A stretch of DNA of 20,000 nt from Reclinomonas americana ATCC 50394 (GCA_048213135.1 PS015088.1:108322-128321), one strand, 5' to 3'. Counted from the stretch's first letter, positions 2,443-20,000 are shown. Program-made: numbers and translations. The notes: generated by a model from the sequence alone, not told the origin.

Positions 2443-5400
2443 TCAAGTCGAAAACGCCTTGTTCAACTGCTTCTCCAACGTCTTGCGCATACCCGCATTG
2501 AAGACACTGCTGGGGAAGTTGTCCTCGTTCGTCGAATCCTCACGCCACGCCTCGCACAAACTCTGCATCCGCACGACGGATTCAGGCAAGCTCTCAATTG
2601 CAACACCTCCCTCATTTCCACGCTGCCCTCACCTCCGCATCATAGATTCCCTTGCTGCGCAGATGCTGAGCCACTTGCGCGCACGTCTCCGGCTCCCACA
2701 AGTGCTGCAGGTACTGGCGAAGGAAATCTGCAAGCACACGAAAGGTCAGTACTGTTACTTCCTCTTCTTCTCTTCCGCGTCCATCTTTTCTTCTCCTCTG
2801 TCTCCTTCATCTTCTCCTTGTTCCTTTTCTTCTCTTCCACGTCCGCCTTTTCTTCTCCTCTGTCTCCTTCATCTTCTCCTTGTTCCTTTTCTTCTTTTCC
2901 TTCTGCTTCATCTCCTTCTTCCTCTTCTTCTTCTACTTCTCCTTCTCCTTCTCCTCCTTCTCCTCCTCCCTTTTTCTGTTCTTTATTTTCTTCTTCTTCT
3001 TCTCCTTCTCCTCCTTCTCCACCTCCTCCTCCTCCTCCTCCTCTTTTTCTTCTTCTCCTCCTTCCCCTCTTTCCCCTCCTTCCCCTCCTCCCCCTCCGGA
3101 TCCCCTTCTCCTCTTCCGCCTTCTCCTCTTCCCCCCTCCTCCTTCTCCTCGCCACTCACCCGCCACCGGCACATCACCCGGCCCATTGGGATTCACCCAC
3201 GCACTGACTGGCTGCGGCACCGGCACCGCAGATCCACTCCCAGAGGCCACAGACTGCGGAGAGATCACAGCGCTGGTGCTGTGGGCGCTCGAGCTGAGCG
3301 GCGAGTGTCCACTGTCATGCTCGACTTCCGAGCCGGCGGCGTAGGCTTGCTCCAGAGTCGGGAAGCGACCACTGGAGCCGAGAGCGGCGGGATTCTCTTC
3401 CATCTGCTCGGCCAGCGTCTCGAGGTTGTTGAGTGCGAGGAGGTAGGCTTCGTGAATGGCACGCAGCACCGACACCTCCACGTCGAGGTCTTGGAGTCGC
3501 TCGTCGCGGTACGTGCGGATGAAACGCACGCGCTGCACACCGTAGCCACCGTCACCCGATGCGCACATGCGGTCGCGCATGGCAATGGTGTCGGCGTGCG
3601 CCTCGGCCAGCAACGCATTGCCGGTAAACTCGCCGCCCAGCAGGTCGACCTTGGAGACGAGAATCATCGTTGGGATGCCATCTACAAGAAAGTGAGTGGT
3701 GAGACGATGCGCTGAACAGAACACTTCGCAGTCGACGAACCAGGTGGCAGAGCATCGCGGGCACGCGAGATAAAGGTCAGCATCTTCTCGCGGGTGGCAC
3801 CGTTGCCGACATTGTCGGCCGGGATGATGAGCAGCAGGCAGTGCACCTGCATTGACACAATGTAAGTCAACCCCAAACCTGAATGAACAGTCGGCAGAAG
3901 AGTGACATAGGGAAAGAGAACAAGAGGGTGGCTGCTGAACGCTGTGAATTCGCCTGTCGCACAAGTCTCACCTCGTCACAAACAGTTGGGTTGGGATTGA
4001 AGCACGTCGGGTCTTCGCGGCCCATGCGGCGGAAGTCCCAACCGGCTTTGGCCTTGCCTTGCACAATGTACGCAAGCTCGTCTGCACAGCACTCTGTCAA
4101 CATCACAAATTGCTTCCACTTCGAGAACACAGATGGGTCTCACCGCGCTCATACAGTCCCTTTTGCCAGCCCATCATGTCCAAGAACGCCAAGTGCTGGA
4201 ACCGAGGGTCGCGCAGCGCCTTGTGCACCATCAGTCGCTGCGTCAGGCTCGTGGAGGAGTCACCGGAGCAAGCCACACGTTCGCCCTGTGATGTTGTAGA
4301 CCGCGAGATGAGAACGAGCTCTTACGATGCCTCTCGGGCACCAATCTCACCGGCGAGTTCAGCCCAATGCTCTTCAGGGTGTTCAGCAGCGACGTTTTGC
4401 CGGCCTTGACCTCGCCGGCCACCAAGAAATTGATGCGCAGCTTGGGGCCAAACACCTGGCGCAGATACTCCAGGCGCGTGGTGTTGGCCAGCTTTTGCAG
4501 CAGTTGCTCACGTCTGCCACGATAGGGAAGTCAGCAGACAATGAAACACAACTCACGGGTGACATACTCAACTCGTCCACTAGTCCTCCACCGGGCGCCT
4601 CGTGCTGCGCCTGTAGCAGAATGCGAGCTGCAACCTCCTTGTGGCGGCGCTGCAGCTCCTCAGCTACAGCATCGGCAATGGGCTGTTGGATGGCATCCGG
4701 GAGAGTGTCGTCCAGAGCGGCGGACAGTGCGGCAGGCAGGTCTCGCTGCACGGCCTGCGGCAATGCGCGTGCAAGGCCGTCGGCAAGTTGTCGCTGCATC
4801 GCCGGCGGCAGCTTCTGGTCTACGAGGCCATTGATCGTGTTGGGCAGCAGCTCGTTCAGCACCGGCGGCAGTGCCGCGGGCAGCGCTGCGGGGAGCACAG
4901 ATTTGATGGCCTCCGGCAGGATGGTGCGCAGGGCGTCGGGGAGAACGCGATGCACAATCTCATCCACCCGCTCGCCGAGTCGCTCCTCCAAGAAGCGCTC
5001 GAACGCACCAATGTCGACCGTGGTGTCTGCAGACGCGGAAACGGATCAGTGTTTTGACACGAGAAGCTGCATACGAAGAGATTTACCGATGATCTCGTGC
5101 ACCTCCAGTTCCGTCCAGGCCATGTTTGCGTTGCCGCCCAGCATCCAGTACTCATTCAAACCCTGTGGGCTGTATGTTCCGCCAACATTGCTGCACGAGG
5201 GGAGTAGAGACACGTTAACAAGGATGGACAGCATGGTCCAAGTAAGTGAGACACTCACACGTAGACGTTGTTGTTGCTGTTGAAGTACAAATCCTACAAA
5301 CATGCGACAGCATGCGCAAGGTGAGAATTTCTCCTGCTGACTGCAAACGCACGAGCTGGCAACTGTAGCGCAACGTGGTTGCTCCCCCAGGCACCGTAGT

Positions 5401-6018
5401 AGCTGTTTTGATGGTATACTGCACTCTCCTTGCTCTGGTACTGGTCAAAACGACGCTCATCGCGCTTGCCTTGCACAATCAACTGTGCATTCAAGAAGAC
5501 AGATGAGAACGAGCAACACCAATCAACGACTGCACCGAGACAGCAACTCACGGAGAAGATGAACGCCTCCGAGTCGTAGTGGTACTGCCCGTTAGTGCCC
5601 CACTAATGGAACACACAAAATCAGATCAAATTACATTTGTACATGACGGATGGATTGACGCAACGTGTGTGGTCTTGAAGCCACCAAGCAGGAACTGCGA
5701 CCCACCACTGCCACCTCCGGCAATGGTGATGGTGTTGCGCAGGCCAGAGGCATCCGTCTTTTGATGGAATGTCGAATACGATGAACCATCTCGTGTGTAC
5801 CGGTACACCAGACGCAGACGACTGATGCACACATGCACACGCAGCGAGAGGTTAGAAGAGGTAAGAAAAAAAGAAGAAGAGAGTGTGTGTTGCGAGACAT
5901 GAGCGCACCACGACGAGTATCCGAGAAAGTTCTGAATGGCCGTCACATCGGCCTCAGTCAACAGAGCGCTCTCCACCACAGGCAGAATCTGGCGACGAGG
6001 ACGAGATCCGCTTGCCAT
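2443..6018 (-). CDS. TLDc-domain, IFI44/IFI44L-like P-loop NTPase with an LP-repeat linker and a C-terminal SAM-like domain, about 758 aa, 14 exons
   Basis: Exons 6018-5909, 5821-5665, 5602-5552, 5482-5375, 5293-5259, 5190-5087, 5026-4573, 4513-4351, 4285-4144, 4081-3972, 3846-3741, 3681-3160, 2727-2633 and 2562-2443 sum to 2277 nt in one open frame. TLDc motifs: LVYRYTRDGSSYSTFH, LLGGF, DSEAFIFSL, WGSNHDLY, ELEV. NTPase motifs: FLVAGEVKAGKTSLLNT, FLDMMG, PTVCDEVHCLLLII, GIPTMILVSKVD. The 4573/4513 junction is the least certain. Confidence 0.85.
2728..3159. repeat. Pyrimidine-rich (CTT/CCT) low-complexity intron with an internal duplication of about 45 bp
   Basis: TTTTCTTCTCCTCTGTCTCCTTCATCTTCTCCTTGTTCCTTTTCT occurs near 2786 and 2848. 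The region is bounded by a GTGAGT donor (3159) and a CAG acceptor (2728) on the minus strand. Confidence 0.85.
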
Positions 6019-6254
6019 GGCTCTCACACACAAATGAGAAAATTGTGATTCCGTTTGCATGCGACAGGACATGCATTCCCGTCTTGGTGGATATTGACAG
6101 GACTGTTTCGAAACGCGACAGAATTGCAGTGCGTCTCGTTGCCGCTGGTGGTGTGTGTTGTAGTCTGAGAGACTGTGAGTGAGAGTGCGTCTTTGAGAAG
6201 CGCGCCAACTGCCCAGCTGCAGCAGACAGGACGCAATATCCCGTTTCCTATCCA

Positions 6255-8404
6255 ATGCTCTCTGACGAGCAACAGTTGCAGCTGCTGTGCTGGATTGGCC
6301 GCGATGGGTACGCATGCACACACATGCCACTCTTCTGCACCACTGCATGCTCACTTGTGTTCCCAGGCAACGACTTCGTCTTCACGAGTTGCATTCGTCG
6401 CGGAGTGGTCGCTCGGGGTTCTCCACTGCTGAGGTGGCCAATGTGGCCGAGCGATACGCTTCCTCGTCGTTGTTTGTGGTGTTGTGGACGGCCAATCAGT
6501 CGATTGTGGGCGCATACACAACGCGTTCGTGGAAAGCCGCGCGATGTGACCCGCATGCGTTCTTGTTTGCAGTTGCGCACTCGTGTGAAAGCAGAAGCTT
6601 TTGTGAGTCTCTGACGTGGGGACTCCAGCTGGCAGTGGGCGGTCAACCAGTGGCGTGTGTGCTGGAGAATGCAGGTGTCGCGAGGCATCAAGATTATGTG
6701 TGCGGATTGGTTCGGAAGCATCCACAGGTGGACTCGAGAGTGATCAGCTTTGGCGCTGGTCCGGTGAGTGTCTACTATATGCACTGTCATGGCCGTCTCT
6801 TCCTCGCGCGTGCTGAGTGCAGTGGTGCAGGATCTCGCGTTGCAGCACGGTGTGTTGCTTGTTCCATCGCGTAGTATGTTTTCCAGTGCTGCGACGTATC
6901 AAGCACAAGACACACTGCGAGTGGTGTGGTGAGCATGCTGTGCTGTGCATCCACCACGACTCGGCACTCAATGACACTGTTTGCGTGCCACAGCAACCCT
7001 GGCCACTCATTCGAACCCTTTGACGATCACACTAGGCGACTCGATCCCGAGCTCTTCAGCAGCACCGGCTCGCAAGTGGTGCAACTCGCAGTGTATGCCG
7101 TGGTCGCAGGTTCGTTGCACTCTCTCTTTTGTCTGCGTCGTGCTTCTAATTCTGTGCCACAGGGGGCGAGCCACTTCGAAAACCTGCTGCGCACTCCACT
7201 GCAGCCGCACCTCCACCGTCACTGCCTGCACACCGCCTGTCTGAACTGCAGGCGTTGAGCGGGCAGAGCGACCAGTGTGTCAGTGCACTGCGGCAGCTGC
7301 CGAATGTGGATGACCTGTTGGCAAAGCTGCACACCGTGCTATGTTACCAGCAGGATTCCATCCAGAGCCTGTGCGCTGAGAACTCCGCCTTTCGCCAGCT
7401 GCATGCCGTGCCATCGCTGCTGGTGCGTCTGTCCACCTGCACTCTTGCATTGATGCCTTCTCTTGTTTTCACCACGCCAATCTCCAGCAGGTTACAGTTG
7501 GAGGCACTGGCGCAGCACCGAGCGCGACCGGAAGACCATTACCACCGCCAGCACGTCAGCCTGTTGTACAACCACCACCACCACCACCGCCTCCTCCACC
7601 TCCACCCTCGCCACCTCTCCCACCACTTCCGCCACCTGCTGAATCTGTGGACCACGTGAATCGCACTCGAGCACCCGACATGGAGTTTGCACTCGACGAC
7701 GACGACAGGCATGCCGAGCGTGCCATAATGTCGCCAGTGCCGCGGATGATGTACGTTCCGCGGATTGTTGTGGTGTGCTCACAAATTGCAGAGCGTGACT
7801 TTACGTCGGCCTACTGCCTGCCCGAGGTGTGCCGAGCGTTGCAAGTTGCAGGTACGTCAGGAGACAACACAGAGAGGATTGGAGGTGGTGTGAGTGTGCT
7901 CAACACGAAGAATCGTCTCAGGTGCCTTCCGAGTGGTCTCCCTGGCCGATCGTCCTCGCCACATCGACGGTGTTTTGGTTGCTCTGCGCGTGTCGGGACG
8001 GATAGAGACTGACGAGATTCGCACCTTCTTTCGTCGGGTGCTCGGCAGTGGTGGTGGTGCGTTGCAGTCATACCGATAAGTGGCTTCTCCTTTGCAACTC
8101 ATGATCGCTGTGTGGTGCAGCAGGCTCTTCGTCGTCATCATCATCATCATCGAGAGAACCCGTGCGACAGGTGCTGTTGTCGTTCATGAATGAGCCGAGC
8201 AAGCCGTGTGACTCGGATGACGAGCTGAAGACCGGTATCCCGGCCTCGGAGCTGGCACGCAGCGGGATTGCATGCATCGACATGCGCTTCGTGGAAAAGT
8301 TCCCCAGTCCGTCGCGCTTTGTCACAGACCGCGGATTCAACCGCCAGCAGCTGGCGAGATTGGACGAGGCGCTGGGTGGCACGGGTGACGAGTGGAGCGA
8401 GTGA
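6255..8404 (+). CDS. Divergent TLDc-domain protein with a helical segment, a polyproline tract and a C-terminal helical (possibly SAM-like) domain
   Basis: Exons about 6255-6307, 6367-6602, 6675-6763, 6831-6928, 6994-7109, 7163-7422, 7491-7851, 7922-8056 and 8121/8124-8404, all phase-compatible GT-AG. TLDc-like motifs: MLSDEQQLQLLCWI, SGFS, IVGAYTTRSW, DPHAFLFAV, FGAGPDLAL, LAVYAV. An extra intron near 7720-7791 and the true start are uncertain. Confidence 0.7.
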
Positions 8405-10821: not shown

Positions 10822-13800
10822 GCTCGCAAGATGTCGTTCAATTGCAACGTGCATTGCAAGAACACGAGACGGCGCTCATCCAGGCGCGCATGATCCTGGA
10901 GAGCTCCGATGCCGCCGCACGCGCTGCTCGCGAGGAGCTGCAAGCGAATTTCATTCAGATACTGACCACGGAACGGGAGGCGCATGAGCGCAATGAGCTC
11001 GTGCATCGCCAGCGCGAGGAGCAGCTGCGGTCGCGACAGCAGGAGTTGGAGAAGCGGAACAGTGAGTCACGGAAGATGGCCGACGAGGCGCGCGCGGAGT
11101 TGCGGAGAGAGCGGGATGCGCGGTTGCGAGCCGAGGCCGAGCTGGCGCAATTACGGCAGCGCTACGATCCGTTGTCGGGCGGTTCCGGCAGTTGCGTTCT
11201 GTCGCCAAGAAAAGGGGATAGTATTATTATTGTGGTGGCCTGACACACTGCTCATTAGGCGACTCGTCGTCGGGGAATGGGGATCGCGAGTCGAGTCCAC
11301 CGCAGGGCAGCTCCAGTGCCGACGCCCAGAGCAGCCCGATTGCGGAGATGCACCGCAAGGTGGTGGAAATGCGGCGGCAGCTGCATTCGTTGTGCATTCC
11401 GTCGGTGTTGCGGGCTGTCAGTGTGGTCACGGAGGTGCGTTGTGGGAGCACAGGGAGGAAGAGAGGGAAAGAGGGACAGAGAGGATGAGGAGGGGGGCAC
11501 TGTCAGTGTAGTCACGGAGGATTGTCGTGGGAGCACAGGGAGGAAGAGAGGATTCTCGTCGCTTCTTGCTACCTTTTCTTCTTTACTCCCCCTTCCTTAN
11601 NNNNNNNNNNNNNNNNNNNTTCCTCATCCTTCCCTTTCCCCTTCTCCCCCTCACCTTCCCCCCCCTCCACCGACAGGCCCGCGAGGTCCAACGAAGTGCC
11701 AAATTCGCCGAGCAATTCACCACCAGCTCAGCGTACCGCGCCGCCGCCGGCTGCCGACAGCTGGTGGACACGGCGAGCGGATCGTTGAGTCGATTCACTC
11801 TTCCTCCCGCCCTCTCTCCCCTCTCCAGTCCCTCACCAGCACACAGATGGAATGACACGCTGGAGAGGGCCACCAACGACCGCCTCATGCGTACCGAACT
11901 GGCGGTGCGCACTCTGCGCTCCATCATTGAGAAAACNNNNNNNNNNNNNNNNNNNNNNNNNNNNNNNNNNNNNNNNNNNNNNNNNNNNNNNNNNNNNNNN
12001 NNNNNNNNNNNNNNNNNNNNNNNNNNNNNNNNNNNNNNNNNNNNNNNNNNNNNNNNNNNNNNNNNNNNNNNNNNNNNNNNNNNNNNNNNNNNNNNNNNNN
12101 NNNNNNNNNNNNNNNNNNNNNNACAGGCGCTGCTGTCGGAACACGAGTCGCTGGCCGGCTCTCTGCAGGCACAAGCCAGCACTCCCACCATCAATGGCTC
12201 CTCGTCGCCGGACTCGGTCGACGACGAGTCGAGCAACTCGAATTCATCGAGCGGTGCGTTTTCCCTCCTATCCTCCCAGTCTCCCATCAATCTGCCCTCA
12301 CACACATTCTCCCCTCTCTGCAGACTTGTCGTCCAACGCCGTCGAAGTCGTCAGCCCGGCGTTGATTGCTCAGTTGCACCGATGGATGGAGACTCACTGG
12401 GCGCGCATCGAAGCCGCCGTGCTGGCCACGGACGGTAGCGTCGTGTCACACGGACTCAATGGCAACATTCACCACGAGGCCGACGCACTGTCGCAGGCCC
12501 TCGATGCTGTGCCGGTCACCGCCGAACACGTCGGCCTCATTCGCTCCATTCTGGTGCGTGCGTGGGTGGAGAAAGGGGGCGAAGGGACTGTCATATTAAG
12601 AGTCTCACACGCGCGTGTGCAGGGCAAGAGCGCGCGTTCGTGCAGCTCCGTCCTGGCCCTGCTCGTCACCGAGTGCAATCGCCTCTCGCGTGGCCTGGAC
12701 GTGCAACGGCGCTCCATCCACGTGTGCGACGAGGTCACCGAGGCCTCGCACGAGGCGCGTGTGGCCGACCGCGCACTGCGACGAGCACTGGTGCGGGGAA
12801 GGAGATCTTTTTTTCTTCTTGCGCATATCGGCTCACCACCACATGCAGGTCGACTTGGAGGAGCAGCAAGACGACGGCGCCAGCCAACCGGTGCTTGCCA
12901 TGCTGGCCACCACTGTGGAGGAACGCCGCGAGGCACTCGGCAAGGCGCAGGAGAGATTAGCCCTGTGCAGTCACGCCCTGACGCTGCTGGAGAACGAGGA
13001 GTGGGTGCCGGAGCTCACGCTGCGGTCTCAGCGTGCTGTCGAGGCACTTGGTCAGCAGGTTTGTGAAAGGAAGGGAGAGGGGAAGGGAGGGAGAGAGAGA
13101 GAGAGAGAGGAGGAAGGGGGAACGATAGAGGTTGGTGGTGATCTTAACAAAAGGATCTGGAGGAGAATTTGGAAAAGGGGGAAACAGAGAACAGGATGAG
13201 GAAGAGAAGAGGCAGAGAGTATGAGTGTGCATTGCGCAGAAGTAGCCACGAGGCCGCGAGCAGGTCATGACTTCGGCCCTGCTTTTATGTACTTCTCTCC
13301 CATTCAATACTCGCCCCTCCGTTTTCTGTATATCGCCCTCCACTCCTGTCTCCCGTTTCTGTCTTCTTCCATCTCCCTTCTCTTCTTTCTGTCTCCATTT
13401 TCTACCGTTTCACCTTACTTCTCCCACCCACTCGTCTCCATTCGCGCTTCTCCCAAGTCGCACTTTTCATTCCCTTACCCACCCTTGACGCCCTTCACGT
13501 CCTTCCTTTTCGCACTCTTCCTCTCCATGCTTCTCGCTCTCCGCCCTCCCTCCTTCCCAATCCTTCCCCCTTGATTACTTCCCCCTTCATCTTCTCCCTT
13601 TTTTTCCCCTTTCCCCCTCTGCCCCTTCCGTCTTCCCCCTTCGTCTTCCCCCCTTCGGTCTTTCCCCTTCACCTTCCCCCTTCACCTTCCCCCTTCACCT
13701 TCCCCCTTCACCTTCCCCCTTCACCTTCCCCCTTCACCTTCCCCCTTCACCGTCCCCCTTCACCTTCCTCTTCCACCTTTCCCCTTCCCCCTTCCCCCCC

Positions 13801-16800
13801 TTTTCCTCACCCGCGCTCTTGTCCACCACCGCAGCACGTCATCCCCACCGTCCTACTGCGAAGCCCCTTCCTGATGCCGACGGTACGCGAGGACGCATTT
13901 GTCGACGTGGAGGAGGTGGCGGGTCGGAGAAACGTGTATCGCGCAAGGTGCGTCACCTCACTCGTCTCTTTTCTTGCTTCGCAGCGCTAACTCCTGTCAT
14001 GCAGGTTGCGAGAGGACGGCAGCCGGTGGATTCTCAAGCGATACACGCTCGGCGATGAGCAGGCACGCCACCGCTTCCTTCGCGAAGTCAGCATTCTTCG
14101 ACAGGTTTGTTTCATTGTTTCTTTTTGTCTGTCTCTTCTCTCCCTCTCACTCTCTCTTGCAGGTACAACACCCGAACGTGGTCCGCCTGCGCGGTTACTT
14201 TTTGGGCGACAAGAGCGCCGAGGATGTGATTGCCGTGTTCTCCTACCCGGGACTGCGCTCGTTGACAACATGGTGCCGCGAAAAACAGCGATCGGAGAGC
14301 GAGATCCGTGAGGTGTTCTTTGGATTGTTGCAGGTGCGGTTGTTCTTTCACATCGTTGCCTGTTGTGTGAGAGACCACAACTGAACACACATCGGGGGAC
14401 TTCGATGCAGGGATTGGTGGCTCTCCATCAGCACGACGTGGTGCATTGCGACTTGAACTTTGAGAATGTGATTATCAGTGCCGACGGGCAGCCGCGCATC
14501 GTCGACTATGACATTGCCGATGGTCCTCGGCCGCTGACGCGTCGCTTGGCAGTGGCAGGTGTGTTCTGCTACGCACGCTGCTTCCCCACTATTTGCACTC
14601 ACCTTTCCCTTCATCCGCACAGCCGAGGGCTCCGACGGCTTCCTCGCACCCGAGGTGATCGAGTGCATGGCCCGCCAGCGAAACGGCCTGCTGGCCTCCA
14701 CGGAGCCGTCCCGTGACCTGTTTGCTCTGGGTGTTATGCTTTTCCAGGCGATGGTCGGCATGGATCGAGCAGTGTCGGTGGTGCCCGCGGGTGCCAGCGG
14801 CGGCTGGGAGGTCCATCTGGATCAGGCCGCCATCACCTCGCCCACGCTTCTGTCACTTGTTCTGGCACTGGTCAGTGATATGCGCACATGTGTGCGTGTG
14901 TTTGTCGTGCGTTGTCTCACTGCCGTGGCACACAGGTTGAACCCGATCCAAAGAAACGCATTTCGGCGCTCGACGCACTGGCACACCCATTCTTCCGACT
15001 CCACTCATTACCGGCGTATGCCGTCGACGCGGCCACTTCACTGGCCGAGCAGCGCGTACAGTCGATTCGTGAGCAACTCGCACGCATGAGGACACACGCC
15101 GGACCGTACATTATGCCAGTTGCGGGCATGCAGAGATTTTTCTTTGTCGAAGAGGCTGAGTGACTCAACTGTGGGTGCGCGCACAGATTCAAGTTTCGCG
15201 CGAATCACTGGTCACCGACGGCGCCTCGTTCTTCCTGTCCATGGAGCCGTCGAACTGGATTGTGCCACTGCGTGTCTCGTTTTTGGGCGAGGAAGGAGTG
15301 GATGCGGGCGGCCTCACTGCGGAGTTTTTCGCTCAGGTTTGTGAACACACTGTTCTTCTCATCGCCTGTTGATCCTCTTTGTCATCCCAACACGCGATGC
15401 TTTCCTCGCATCTCCTTTCTCGTTACCCTTCTCGCTCCTTTCCAACTGTTGCTTTTCTTGATCCTCTCTGTCATCCCAACACGCGATGCATTCCCCGCAT
15501 CCCCTTCCCGTTACCCTTCTCACCCCTCTCCAACTCTTGCTATCCTTTTGCCGTCCCAACACGCGATCCTTTCCTCACATCTCCTCTCTCGTTACCCTTC
15601 TCGCTCCTTTCCAACTGTTGCTTTTCTTGATCCTCTCTGTCGTCCGACTCTTTCCTCCCATCTCCTTCCCGTTACCCTTCTCGCTCTTCCCCAGCTCTTG
15701 CCTTTCTTGATCCTTTTTGTCGTCCCAACACGCAGTTCATTCGTCGCATCTCTTTCCCTTGTTGCTTTCTTGATCCTCTCCGTCGTCCCAACACACGATC
15801 CTTCCACATCCCCTTTGCCCTTCTCACTCTTCCCCAGCTCTTCCCTTTCTTGATCCTTTTTGTCGTCCCAACACACGATCGTTTCCTCGCATCTCTTTCC
15901 CTTGTTGCTTTCTTGATCCTATCTGTCGCCCCAACACGCGATCCTTTCCTCACATCCCTTTCCCTTTACCCTTCTCGCTCCTCTTCGGCTGTTGCTTCTC
16001 GTGATCCTTTCCTCGCGTCTCTTTCCCTTCACCCTTCTCACCCCCTCCGCTCCTCTTGCAGTTCTTTGAGCAACTGTGCACCAAGTCGAACGCATTCGTG
16101 CGGGAGGACGAGCACGACGCGCAGTACTACCACGTGGCGCCGCTGCACGTCATGTCGCGCGAACACCGAGAGCAAGCGGAGCTGACGTTGCTGGCGTTTG
16201 GTCGCGCCCTGGCCAAGTGTCTGTCGGAGGCGCACGCGGCGCTGCCGGCTCCCCTGTACTCGGACGTGATCCTGGAGCTGCTCGGCTCGACTCCACGCGC
16301 GCGCATGTTTTGCGATCCAAATGATGTGACGGCCGACGCTGCCGAGGCGCTGCTGCGCGCACTCGAAGTGATTGTGCCGTCGGTGGCCAGGAGCTTGCGC
16401 TTCACCCTGGTGCAGTTCGAGGCCTCCATGTTGTTCTTTGACGATGTTGTACCCGAGTTTTTGCCAAGCACTGTCAGTTGCGTGCGGATAGGGAGAATGG
16501 GATTGGCATGGCGAGTGGCTCACGAGATTGCTTTGCAACACAGATGCACGTGATGGCGTCACGGAGGAGAATCGCTTGTCGTACGTTTGTGCCCGCGCTC
16601 GCACGGTGTTGCTGGGTCAGGGCCGGTTGGACGCCATCTCAATAATTAAGCGCGGAGTCCGGGATTGTCTGGCACCCGCGTTGGGCGATCAGGTGTGTGT
16701 GCGCGCGCGTCATGGAATCGTTAGTCGTGGCACTCATTTCTTCTCGAATATGCTGCAGCTGCTCAACTCCATGGGTGCCTTTGAATGGCTGCGCGCACTG

Positions 16801-17214
16801 CCGGCAACGCAGGAGTCTGTCGGTGCGTCCTTCTCCTTCATCGTCTCCCCTGTCCCTCTCACCACCGCATCGCTCACCGCTCGCACAGATGCCGAGGCCC
16901 TCATCGACCTGCTGCGCTTTGAGCACTTCCCTGACGCAAGCGAGGCACCCCATGTGCTGGCCCAGGCGCTGCGCGAATTCACACAAGATGAGTTGCGCCA
17001 GTTCCTCAAGTTTGTCACCAATCTGCCGGGGCTGCCGTTCGGACATCCGCGACCGGTGTTGGTGGTGGCCTCGGCGGCTGGTGTCGAAGAGCTCCCGACG
17101 GCGCACACCTGTGTGCCGCAGTTGGATCTCAGCTGGCATCACTCGTCGGCCGAGGTGCTCGGTCGTGTGCTGCGGACGGCGATTGCGCAGTGTGTTGGCT
17201 TTGGATTCGCGTAG
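10822..17214 (+). CDS. Coiled-coil + atypical protein kinase + C-terminal HECT E3 ubiquitin ligase fusion protein (multi-exon; 5' exon unresolved; spans two N gaps)
   Basis: Coiled-coil exons lie at 10822-13058. Kinase exons (13835-15118) show WILKRY, FLREVSIL, HPNVVRL, HCDLNFENV, IVDYDIA, GFLAPE, DLFALGVML and DPKKRISALDALAHPFF. HECT exons (15187-17214) show VSRESL, LRVSFLGEEGVDAGGLTAEFF, FGRALAKCL, FLKFVT, LPTAHTC (catalytic Cys) and terminal GFGFA*. The kinase and HECT parts join in frame across intron 15119-15186. Confidence 0.88.
13059..13834. repeat. Long intron with purine then pyrimidine low complexity and a 13-bp CCTTCACCTTCCC minisatellite (about 13665-13770)
   Basis: Tandem CCTTCACCTTCCC units are directly visible. 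GTTTGT donor and CAG acceptor. Confidence 0.85.
15365..16040. repeat. Intronic compound minisatellite, about 8-9 units of 60-90 bp
   Basis: TTGATCCTCT(C/T)TGTC(A/G)TCCCAACAC(G/A)CGAT recurs, followed by variable CGTTACCCTTCTCGCTC / GTTGCTTTCTT modules, inside intron 15337-16061. Confidence 0.9.
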
Positions 17215-17265: not shown

Positions 17266-19472
17266 TCATCCGGGACACCGACTGCGATACTCTTCCACCA
17301 GCTCGGCGTTGAGCGAGGGTGTGACCTTTCGCCGTGCGCTGTCAAAGTCCGCCGTGCACTGCGCGTTGTCAACAGTGAGCATGAGTTGGAAGGGAGGTCA
17401 TGGGCATTGTGTCGCACCACCACTGCCGAATTCATATCTCTCCGGAGCGCAGACATGGCCGCCTCTGTGCACAGCGCTTTGAGCTCGGCTCCCGTCATGA
17501 ATTCCGTCTGCACACAACATGTCTCAGTGCACCGAGGAGAGTGATGGCGAAAAAAACGAGCGTCACACCTGCTCGGCGATCCTGGTGAGGTTCAGCCTGT
17601 CGTCGAGCGGCATGCCACGCGTGTGCACTCTCAAGATGGCGACACGAGCCTCCAGATCGGGTGGTGGCACAAACAGCAGGCGATCGAAGCGCCCGGGGCG
17701 CAACAGTGCGGCGTCCACCATCTCGGGTCGATTGGTCGCCGCCATCACCAGCACATCTCGCCGCAGCGCACCGACGCCGTCCATTTCGTTCAACAGCGCC
17801 GTGAGAATGCGGTCTCGTACGGCATCTGAGCCCCCACTTTCACCACCATCTCCACGCTTGCCGACCAGTGCATCGATTTCGTCGAGGAAAATGACGGACG
17901 GTGCGGCCAGGGCGGCCTTCTTGAACAGCTCGCGAATGTACCGCTCGGCGTCGCCGACATATGGCGAGTACACGGTGGCACCACTGGTGTGGAGAAAGGT
18001 GAGCGACGCAGAGGCCGCGACAGCCCGCGCCAAACTGGTCTTTGCGCAACCCGGCGGTCCGTGCAGGAGAATGCCGCGCGGTGGCGACAGACCCATGCGC
18101 TCAAACGTGTGCCGGTACCGCAGCGGCCACTGGATCGCCTGCGCCAGTGCCAGTTTCACGTCCTCCAGGCCACCAATGTCGTCAAACGACGCCACCGGTG
18201 CCGACACGCCGACTTCGGCGGCCTCTCGATGCAGCGATGGACGCACCACCGACCGTGCATGCTCAAAGTGCGACCGCCCGACGCGCACATTGGCGGCGGC
18301 GGCAGCGACAGCCTCTGCGTCGGCGGCCAGAAACGCGACGCGACACAACTCGGCCAGATCCGCCCCCACGAATCCAGCGCACGACTCGGCAATCGTCACT
18401 GAAGGAAAACAATAGTGAGAGGAGACAAGGACGATGATGGAAAAGCAAGCAATCCATGCAAACCAAGATCAACATCGTCTGCCAGTCGCATGCGGGAGGT
18501 GCGCGCACGCAGGATGGCCACCTTGCCGTCGAGTGACGGTGGCGGTATCTCGATCTCGCGATCAAAACGACCGGGCCTGCGCAGAGCGGGATCCAACCGT
18601 GATGCGGCATTGGTGGCCGCCAGCACCACTACTCCCGATGATTGTTCGCCGGGCGCGTGATCGAGGTCGTCCATCAGCGTCTGCAATTGCGCGACGATGC
18701 GTGCGCCGTAATGACTGCCGACAGAGTCGCGCCGCTGACACAACGCGTCGATCTCATCCATGAAAATCACCACGGGCCGATTGCGCGATGCTATTTCGCG
18801 TGCTTCTGCAAACGCCTCACGCAACCGGCGCTCCGTCTCACCCATGGTGTCGTCGGTGACCGACGCACAGTCGATGCACACCACATGCGCGCCGCACTCG
18901 CGCGCCACAGCACGCGCAGCACTGGTCTTGCCGACGCCTGGAGGCCCCGTGAGCAGAGCACCACGCGGTGGACGCACACCCAGTCGAGTGAACACTTCGG
19001 GGACGCGGTGCGGCAGCACCACCAGTTCGCGCAGGGAGCGGAGGACGGAGTCGAGCCCTCCAAGCAACTCTCCCTCCTCTTCCTCCTCCTCCTCTTCGTC
19101 CTTGTCATCCTCCGACAGAGGGGAAGGAGACCTCCCTGGTGACGACTGCTGCTGTAACCGCAGCCGTGTGTTGGCGGTGACGAAAAAGAAGCGATCGGGC
19201 GGAGCACTGGCCTCGGCTGCCACCGCCGTCGAGAAGCGCACATTTGCCACATGCAGTGGAAGCACGTCGGTCGCTGCCTTATCGTCATCACCGACCGGCA
19301 TCAACACTGTGACACCGACCTCCAACAGCGGAAAGCGACGCAGGAATGCTTGCACGCGGGCGGCGTCGACGGGTGATCGAGAAGAAGATGACGACGACGA
19401 AGGGCAGTGCACTGTGACGGAGCTGGCGCGGCGAGGGATGGGGCGGCCAGATGTGAGCACGTCAATGGTGGC
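17266..19472 (-). CDS. AFG2B: CDC48-family double-AAA+ ATPase, SPATA5L1/AFG2B-like (ribosome biogenesis); 5' end unresolved
   Basis: Exons 19472-18464, 18398-17569, 17507-17418 and 17358-17266. D1: GPPGVGKT, IFMDEID, DPALRRPGRFDRE. D2: GPPGCAKT, YSPYVGDAE, IFLDEID, ALLRPGRFD. The GCAKT and SPYVGD variants fit the recalled SPATA5L1/CDC48B subfamily. Confidence 0.85.
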
Positions 19473-19479
19473 CTGCGAG

Positions 19480-19800
19480 AGAGGGATGAGAGAAGGGGAA
19501 AGGGAGAGGGGAAGGGAGGAAGGGGAAGGGAAAGGGAAGGACAGAGGAGGAGGAGGAGGAGGAGGAGGAGGAGGAGGAGGAGGAGGAGGAGGAGGAGGAA
19601 GAGGAAGAGGAAGAGGAAGACGAAGAGGAAGAAGAAGAAGAAGAAGAAGATGATGAAGGTGGAAGGGACGTGGAGAAGAAGAAGAGAAGAAGATGATGAT
19701 GAAGAAGAAGGAAAAGGAGAAGGAGAAGAAGAAGGAGAAGAAGAAGAAGAAGAAGAAGAAGAACAACAACAACAACAACAAGCAGAACAACACCAAATCC

Positions 19801-19889
<89 letters not shown>

Positions 19890-20000
19890 GAAGAAGAAGA
19901 AGAAGACAAGATACACAAAAAGACAAAGAAAAAGAAAAAAAAAGAAAAAAAGAGAGACGATAGACGACGAGACACGTACGTACGTACGTACGTAGTACGT
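19480..20000. repeat. Compound microsatellite (GGA)n-(GAA)n-(AAC)n-(ACGT)n, probably intronic in the AAA gene
   Basis: Directly visible. It lies just upstream of the CAG acceptor at 19473 on the minus strand. Confidence 0.95.

Follow-up and report, generated by a model that had tools for sequence, protein, structure and literature searches.

The 20,000-nucleotide (nt) stretch of DNA PS015088.1:108322-128321 of Reclinomonas americana ATCC 50394 (assembly GCA_048213135.1), called the window in the following, carries on its minus strand, at positions 6018-2443, a spliced gene whose predicted product joins a TLDc-like head to a P-loop GTPase domain. This gene is referred to here as the TLDc-GTPase gene. 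The reading towards which we lean is that it is a genuine gene of an intron-rich, gene-dense microbial eukaryote and that its product of about 760 amino acids (aa) has the domain order of IFI44 and IFI44L, with the addition of a stalk, a probably disordered stretch and a short helical tail. A first-pass annotation of the same DNA had proposed this order, that is, TLDc and then the P-loop GTPase; it is borne out by the analysis and matches the order published for IFI44L. Judged from the sequence, the architecture is probably IFI44-like.

IFI44 and IFI44L are interferon-induced, and they rank with the antiviral genes that vertebrates induce most strongly, even though their mechanism is unknown. 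IFI44 is counted as TLDC5 in accounts of the TLDc proteins (PMC5614904, PMC8294626), and its TLDc domain is given as just 15% identical to other TLDc domains (PMC5614904). Oyster CgIFI44L is described as a protein of 479 aa composed of TLDc and MMR_HSR1, and human IFI44L as one of 452 aa (PMC11682996). In the account of bioRxiv 10.1101/2020.02.24.963900, human IFI44 and IFI44L have a G1 motif of the form GXXXXGKS and a DxxG motif followed by the hydrophobic residue Leu and not by Gln, IFI44L has a G4 motif, and IFI44 restricts respiratory syncytial virus (RSV) even without its predicted GTP-binding G1 region. In cnidarians, which are animals without interferon, antiviral cell programmes are reported to include the upregulation of IFI44 homologues (PMC13319465). 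Among the papers listed in literature searches, none was found to describe relatives of IFI44 in protists.

The gene model was put together by splice assembly from the open reading frames (ORFs) of the window. Fourteen exons (Table 1) join into one open frame of 2292 nt, which corresponds to 763 codons and a TGA stop codon (2445-2443), and all 13 introns have GT-AG borders, 12 of them being 50-125 nt in length and one 432 nt. The spliced ORF claimed in the first-pass annotation, with TLDc, then the P-loop and a series of quoted motifs, was recovered in this way, and all of the motifs were located in the model; the claimed length of 758 aa has to be corrected to 763 aa, or to 760 aa with the alternative join of exons 7 and 8. 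Two options for this join keep the frame, namely a donor after 4557 with an acceptor before 4506 (763 aa) and a donor after 4573 with an acceptor before 4513 (760 aa), while the use of the first acceptor of exon 8 (4513) with the consensus donor was rejected because it breaks the frame. Upstream of the ATG at 6018 there are two extra in-frame ATG codons, at 6072 and 6060, and no stop interrupts the frame through intron 1 (93 nt). Retention of intron 12 would replace the two tail exons by about 75 more codons rich in Glu, Lys, Arg and Gly and ending in a stop at 2933-2935; the in-frame coding score of this intron is -0.61 per codon. Tracts with at least 90% pyrimidines occur on the plus strand at 193-344, 2755-3168 and 13515-13827, and one of them forms intron 12.

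Coding potential was scored with a codon table for which 885 codons from the AAA and HECT ORFs in this window, both supported by Pfam, served as training set. The annotated frame is the top-scoring frame in 13 of the 14 exons, the exception being exon 5, which is 35 nt long, and the coding sequence has a guanine and cytosine (GC) content at third codon positions of 0.74 (0.66-0.71 in the training genes) as against a GC content of 0.37-0.57 in the introns. In addition, the stop-to-stop frame of the P-loop exon contains no ATG before the P-loop, and that of exon 7, which opens directly behind a stop, reaches its first ATG 75 codons further on. Translation of the GTPase exons therefore requires splicing to exon 7, whose translation in turn requires splicing to the TLDc exons, and the head and the GTPase should thus lie on one transcript. 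The missing start codons must be regarded, as far as genomic sequence can speak to it, as the best argument at hand for a single mRNA, and it is very probable that the two parts are encoded by one real fused gene.

The G domain, which is spread over exons 8-12, carries the G1, G3 and G4 motifs and a candidate G2 motif (Table 1). G3 and G4 are 97 residues apart, a spacing that is much longer than in Ras-like GTPases, Roc or the interferon-inducible GTPases (IRG) and near that of IFI44L. Two of the segments quoted in the first-pass annotation, DELAYIVQG and PTVCDEVHC, lie at aa 447-455 and aa 478-486, the latter being split by intron 10, and a segment of 23 residues beginning with TYRDERLQ lies at aa 575-597; the annotation ascribes matching segments to IFI44L (PSLKDRIHC and LLTKVD among them). 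The sequence behind G4 can be read as a succession of helix, strand and helix, which is what the end of a G domain should look like. A six-frame scan of the 20 kb for GxxxxGK[ST] gave five matches, namely this P-loop (4416), one in an AAA ATPase gene and three in GA-rich low-complexity frames; introns and spacers of the window are typically of low complexity, and this produces false long ORFs, which account for these three matches. No paralogous G domain was found when the gene model was compared with the 20-kb window by tblastn. An AlphaFold2 model of exon 12 was judged unusable (mean pLDDT, the predicted local distance difference test score, 61.4 and 39.5-43.5 for the other four, all helical and with the G4 strand unmodelled). 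With these motifs, the domain is likely to be a functional GTP binder, and on balance it would appear closest to the IFI44 type.

The head was assigned tentatively by means of the Pfam family TLD. Exons 1-2 (5665-6018) matched it with an E value of 8.2e-4 and 19.8 bits (cutoff, 24.5), residues 63-101 being aligned with profile positions 24-60 of 170, and the corrected significance of this match is modest, as 34 pieces in all were scanned against Pfam; a longer ORF gave an E value of 0.0028 and 18.1 bits (same cutoff). Furthermore, a divergent gene on the plus strand, whose ATG (6255) is 236 nt from that of the TLDc-GTPase gene (6018), also matches TLD (E value 0.045, 14.1 bits, profile positions 20-94), and in both genes an intron of identical phase lies directly before an RLRL motif, which in the TLDc-GTPase protein reads RLRLVY (aa 36-41). 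Because the neighbour also matches TLD and has its intron in the same place and phase, the TLDc call for the main gene gains independent support. Compared pairwise, the TLDc regions of the two genes are not significantly similar, a score of 36 being matched by 118 of 1000 shuffles. The two genes may be distant TLDc paralogues in head-to-head arrangement with a shared bidirectional promoter. The neighbour is without a P-loop, and its downstream exons code for a Pro-rich region. Each of the two genes has an intron whose 3' end carries a pair of AG dinucleotides spaced by 7-8 nt (4507-4513 and 6823-6830); when the donor is the consensus GTGAGT, the frame is kept by the second AG only, and such pairs may reflect alternative acceptors or the use of weak donors.

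The repeat linker of the first-pass annotation is indeed present, as exon 7 between the two domains, a stalk with ten Leu-Pro (LP) dipeptides, and it is predicted to be helical: AlphaFold2 run on the single sequence gave a mean pLDDT of 70.6, with helices at residues 5-59, 63-69 and 74-142. A Foldseek search of the PDB with this model gave 81 matches at E values up to 10 and none at 0.001 or below, all of them generic long helices and the best with an E value of 1.9, and exon 7 matched Pfam DUF445 weakly, under the cutoff (E value 0.0019). Behind the G domain, the end of exon 12 codes for a Ser/Ala/Pro-rich stretch that is probably disordered, and exons 13 and 14 code for the C-terminal tail. 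The tail had been called SAM-like, which found no backing: exons 13 (31 aa) and 14 (39 aa), scanned singly against Pfam at E values up to 10, matched no SAM family, although each query is half a putative domain and this is weak evidence against the claim. The only Pfam match of exon 13 was RecX_HTH1 (E value 0.13).

Compared with IFI44 and IFI44L, the TLDc-GTPase protein has likewise a putative N-terminal TLDc-type domain followed by a predicted P-loop GTPase, a G1 motif of the GxxxxGK[ST] form, a G4 motif of the xKxD type and a hydrophobic residue after DxxG in place of the catalytic Gln, here Trp435. Unlike them, it is about 760 residues long as against 452 in human and 479 in oyster IFI44L, its two domains are separated by the helical LP-repeat stalk, a Ser/Pro-rich stretch and a tail of 71 residues follow the G domain, the last residue of G1 is Thr and not Ser, and the first of G4 is Ser. 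Its host is probably not an animal and would thus have no interferon system. With the canonical TLDc proteins (OXR1/Oxr1p, NCOA7, TBC1D24 and TLDC1/mEAK7) the protein shares a putative TLDc-like domain, matched by Pfam TLD under the cutoff, but those proteins have other partner modules (LysM/GRAM, TBC or EF-hand) and, as they are described in PMC5614904, no GTPase domain of their own.

Several results weigh against an IFI44-like reading. The TLD match lies under the Pfam cutoff and covers 37 of the 170 profile positions, the query piece being about one-fifth of a domain that is split over six exons, and neither exons 3-4 nor exon 6, each scanned alone, gave a Pfam TLD match, these pieces being too short to score. 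PDB sequence searches with the TLDc pieces or with a two-row TLDc profile did not bring up a TLDc chain: exons 1-2, translated through intron 1, gave two antibody chains only, exons 3-4 two chance matches, the two-row profile two actinidin chains only, and the TLDc exon of the neighbour gene one uninformative match. As for the G domain, family searches were run exon by exon on unspliced translations, since the domain is split over five exons, and such tests are weaker than a full-length test; here MMR_HSR1, the Pfam family ascribed to oyster IFI44L, was absent from the matches of the P-loop exon at E values up to 10. Exon 12 (115 aa), searched against 1.84 billion representatives, gave two matches at E values of 0.001 or below, a TPR-like repeat protein of 1367 aa and a repeat protein of 4283 aa, which were judged to be spurious multi-stretch matches. 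No TLD-bearing cluster was found for the P-loop exon or exon 12 among the Atlas matches listed. In addition, G4 begins with Ser, a position at which Asn or Thr is usual, the gene model was drawn from DNA sequence, and the kinship to IFI44 relies on architecture and short motifs, which were compared by way of published descriptions.

Among the alternatives, an independent fusion survives best, although we hold it to be rather unlikely. According to it, domain shuffling in this lineage brought a canonical TLDc domain together with a protist GTPase of the TRAFAC type, so that the likeness to IFI44 is confined to the architecture, or a G domain of the IFI44 type took part in a convergent fusion. 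It draws on the divergence of the IFI44 TLDc domain, given as the most divergent of the family with 15% identity (PMC5614904), and on the stalk of 156 residues and the extra tail, which are absent from the IFI44L proteins of 452-479 residues as described (PMC11682996); given the same divergence, a TLDc domain detectable by Pfam gives no clue as to whether the fusion goes back to a common ancestor, which is a further point against the IFI44-like reading. Nevertheless, the order from the N- to the C-terminus is the same as in IFI44, and nothing found favours convergence over descent. We know of no other family in which TLDc is followed by a GTPase.

It is improbable that the G domain comes from another named family, such as IRG/IIGP, septin or paraseptin, AIG1/GIMAP, Roc or a dynamin-like family, and was fused to TLDc. 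What speaks for such an origin comes from the P-loop exon, whose Pfam matches, all of them sub-threshold and confined to the P-loop, were IIGP (PF05049, E value 0.084, positions 34-60 of 375, 12.4 bits against a cutoff of 24), Septin (PF00735, E value 0.12, positions 4-26 of 280, nothing beyond the P-loop), GTP_EFTU (0.14), SRPRB (0.15) and Dynamin_N (PF00350, E value 0.18, positions 2-18 only). Against the PDB, the P-loop ORF gave ten weak matches (E values 0.18-1.4), in which chains of IRG proteins of the Irga6 type stood at 0.47-1.2, so the best, if weak, Pfam and PDB matches are of the IIGP/Irga6 type, and the G4 motif is of the xKVD type in IRG/IIGP as well. Among the Atlas matches listed, the language-model look-alikes of the P-loop exon (52 residues) were mostly GTPase fragments, namely Gtr1/RagA (0.92), Roc (0.89), MMR_HSR1, AIG1 and Arf, with clusters annotated as Roc at 0.89 (16% of members) and 0.85 (37%) and as AIG1 at 0.85 (10%), and the nearest named clusters of exon 12 were DO-GTPase2 (0.80) and Septin (0.77). 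In NCBIfam, small_GTP matched the P-loop exon with an E value of 0.02, the other matches being chance ones.

However, the Pfam matches to rival families span only 20-27 residues of the P-loop and lie far under the cutoffs, and exons 9-12 matched no GTPase family in Pfam at E values up to 10; AIG1/GIMAP (PF04548) and Roc (PF08477) were matched by none of the G-domain exons within the same limit. Only positions 34-60 of the 375 in the IIGP profile are touched, the protein has no C-terminal helical domain of the IRG type, and it has a TLDc-like head, which also sets it apart from IRG/IIGP. The spacing of G3 and G4 argues likewise against Ras-like GTPases, Roc and IRG. Searches of the PDB with exon 9 (no match) and exon 12 (one chance match) gave no GTPase chain, and no IFI44 chain was among the matches of these two exons or of the P-loop ORF. 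Word-based protein searches found nothing at the E values considered, exon 12 (173 aa), compared with longer proteins, having 3933 candidates and none at 0.01 or below and exon 9 (47 aa) having six candidates and none at 10 or below. Loci related to exon 12 were sought by pattern in metagenomes (454 matches), genomes (276) and viral contigs (23), none of which was confirmed by tblastn, and in PADLOC none of eight pieces matched. In the exon-by-exon searches, no rival GTPase family is supported beyond the P-loop.

A gene-model artefact, in which the TLDc and GTPase exons belong to two adjacent genes or the model is partly non-coding, is very improbable: the ambiguous junction of exons 7 and 8, where the first AG acceptor with the consensus donor breaks the frame, the short exon 5 whose annotated frame is not the top-scoring one, and the derivation of the model from DNA speak for it, but the frame is open through 14 exons with canonical splice sites, the coding signal is found in 13 of them, no ATG stands ahead of the P-loop in frame or within the first 75 codons of exon 7, and exon gaps of 50-125 nt are too small for a promoter.

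If the IFI44-like reading holds, the G domain would bind GTP through Lys380/Thr381, Thr410, Asp431/Gly434 and Lys529/Asp531. As DxxG is followed by Trp and not by Gln, hydrolysis would probably depend on nucleotide-driven dimerisation or on a partner, as is said of IFI44/IFI44L and of dynamin-like GTPases. The helical stalk and the tail might mediate self-assembly, and the TLDc head would bind a target. TLDc proteins such as Oxr1p and NCOA7 are described as binding or regulating the V-ATPase (PMC8294626, PMC11094088), and by analogy with them the V-ATPase could be that target, which we regard as doubtful. In this way the protein would link a GTP switch to an endolysosomal function or to one in stress or defence; a role in defence is speculative and no less doubtful.

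Table 1. Positions of the TLDc-GTPase gene, its parts and the neighbouring genes (numbering of the window).
Feature	Position (nt)	Strand	Basis or remark
TLDc-GTPase gene, exons 1-14	6018-5915, 5821-5665, 5602-5552, 5482-5375, 5293-5259, 5190-5087, 5026-4557, 4506-4351, 4285-4144, 4093-3972, 3846-3741, 3681-3160, 2727-2633, 2562-2443	-	Splice assembly
TLDc-like domain, exons 1-6, about aa 1-187	5087-6018	-	Pfam TLD PF07534
Stalk, exon 7, 156 residues	4557-5026	-	LP dipeptides (aa 215-295) spaced mostly by 4 or 8 residues
P-loop GTPase domain, exons 8-12, about aa 344-615	3392-4506	-	Motifs read in sequence
G1 / P-loop GEVKAGKT, aa 374-381	4393-4416	-	Direct reading and six-frame motif scan
Candidate G2 / switch I SLTQR with Thr410, aa 408-412	4235-4249	-	Putative, by position between G1 and G3
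G3 DMMG, aa 431-434, then Trp435 and not Gln	4169-4180	-	Direct reading
G4 SKVD, aa 528-531	3644-3655	-	Direct reading
Ser/Ala/Pro-rich stretch, aa 616-692, end of exon 12	3160-3391	-	Composition: S 16, A 11, P 10 of 77
Intron 12, 432 nt	2728-3159	-	GA-rich (minus strand) low complexity
C-terminal tail, exons 13-14, 71 residues	2443-2727	-	Annotated frame top-scoring in both exons
Divergent neighbour gene, TLDc-like	6255-7109, on to about 7850	+	Tentative exons 6255-6307, 6367-6763, 6831-6928, 6994-7109; open four-exon model of 221 aa
Protein kinase, catalytic-loop exon	14312-14716	+	Pfam Pkinase, E value 3.2e-7, 30.4 bits, just below cutoff of 31.7
HECT ubiquitin ligase, C-terminal part	16005-17214	+	Pfam HECT, E value 8e-19, profile 194-305 of 306
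AAA ATPase with two AAA domains, CDC48/AFG2/NVL type	17563-20000	-	Pfam AAA, E values 2.4e-38 and 2.3e-38; runs off the window

The 20-kb window as a whole contains at least six genes, at a density of about one per 3 kb: the TLDc-GTPase gene, its TLDc neighbour, a possible ankyrin gene, and those of the kinase, the HECT ligase and the AAA ATPase with two AAA domains. Its GC content is 57% (range 48-64%), the introns are short, and an Rfam scan gave no match in it. The remaining exons of the kinase are probably held by the adjoining ORFs. Ahead of the AAA ATPase there is low complexity in the form of poly-Pro, poly-Leu and (CAA)30 (19461-19889). Among 120 of the 7843 matches of the AAA ATPase exon, the best identities were 59% with a protein named for the jakobid Seculamonas ecuadoriensis, 54% with Gigaspora and 51% with Dichotomocladium, and the matches listed, being mostly archaeal CDC48, are not a fair sample. 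The short introns, the gene density, the GC content and the 59% identity are all consistent with the protist host proposed in the first-pass annotation, the identity being at most a lead towards Discoba. Runs of N at 11600-11619 (20 bases) and 11937-12122 (186 bases) interrupt an apparent coiled-coil-rich gene on the plus strand, which marks the assembly behind the window as a scaffolded draft.

As a tentative possibility, then, the complete IFI44 design, a TLDc head with an IFI44-type GTPase, may predate both animals and interferon, and it may have been kept in a free-living or parasitic protist as a larger protein with a helical stalk and an oligomerising tail, which would serve as a cell-autonomous, GTP-switched factor of defence or stress acting through its TLDc head, possibly on the V-ATPase. 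If a bona fide TLDc-GTPase of the same type is present in a microbial eukaryote, the origin of the design would be pushed below the animals, and a simpler system would be available for asking how a TLDc head and a GTP switch act together.

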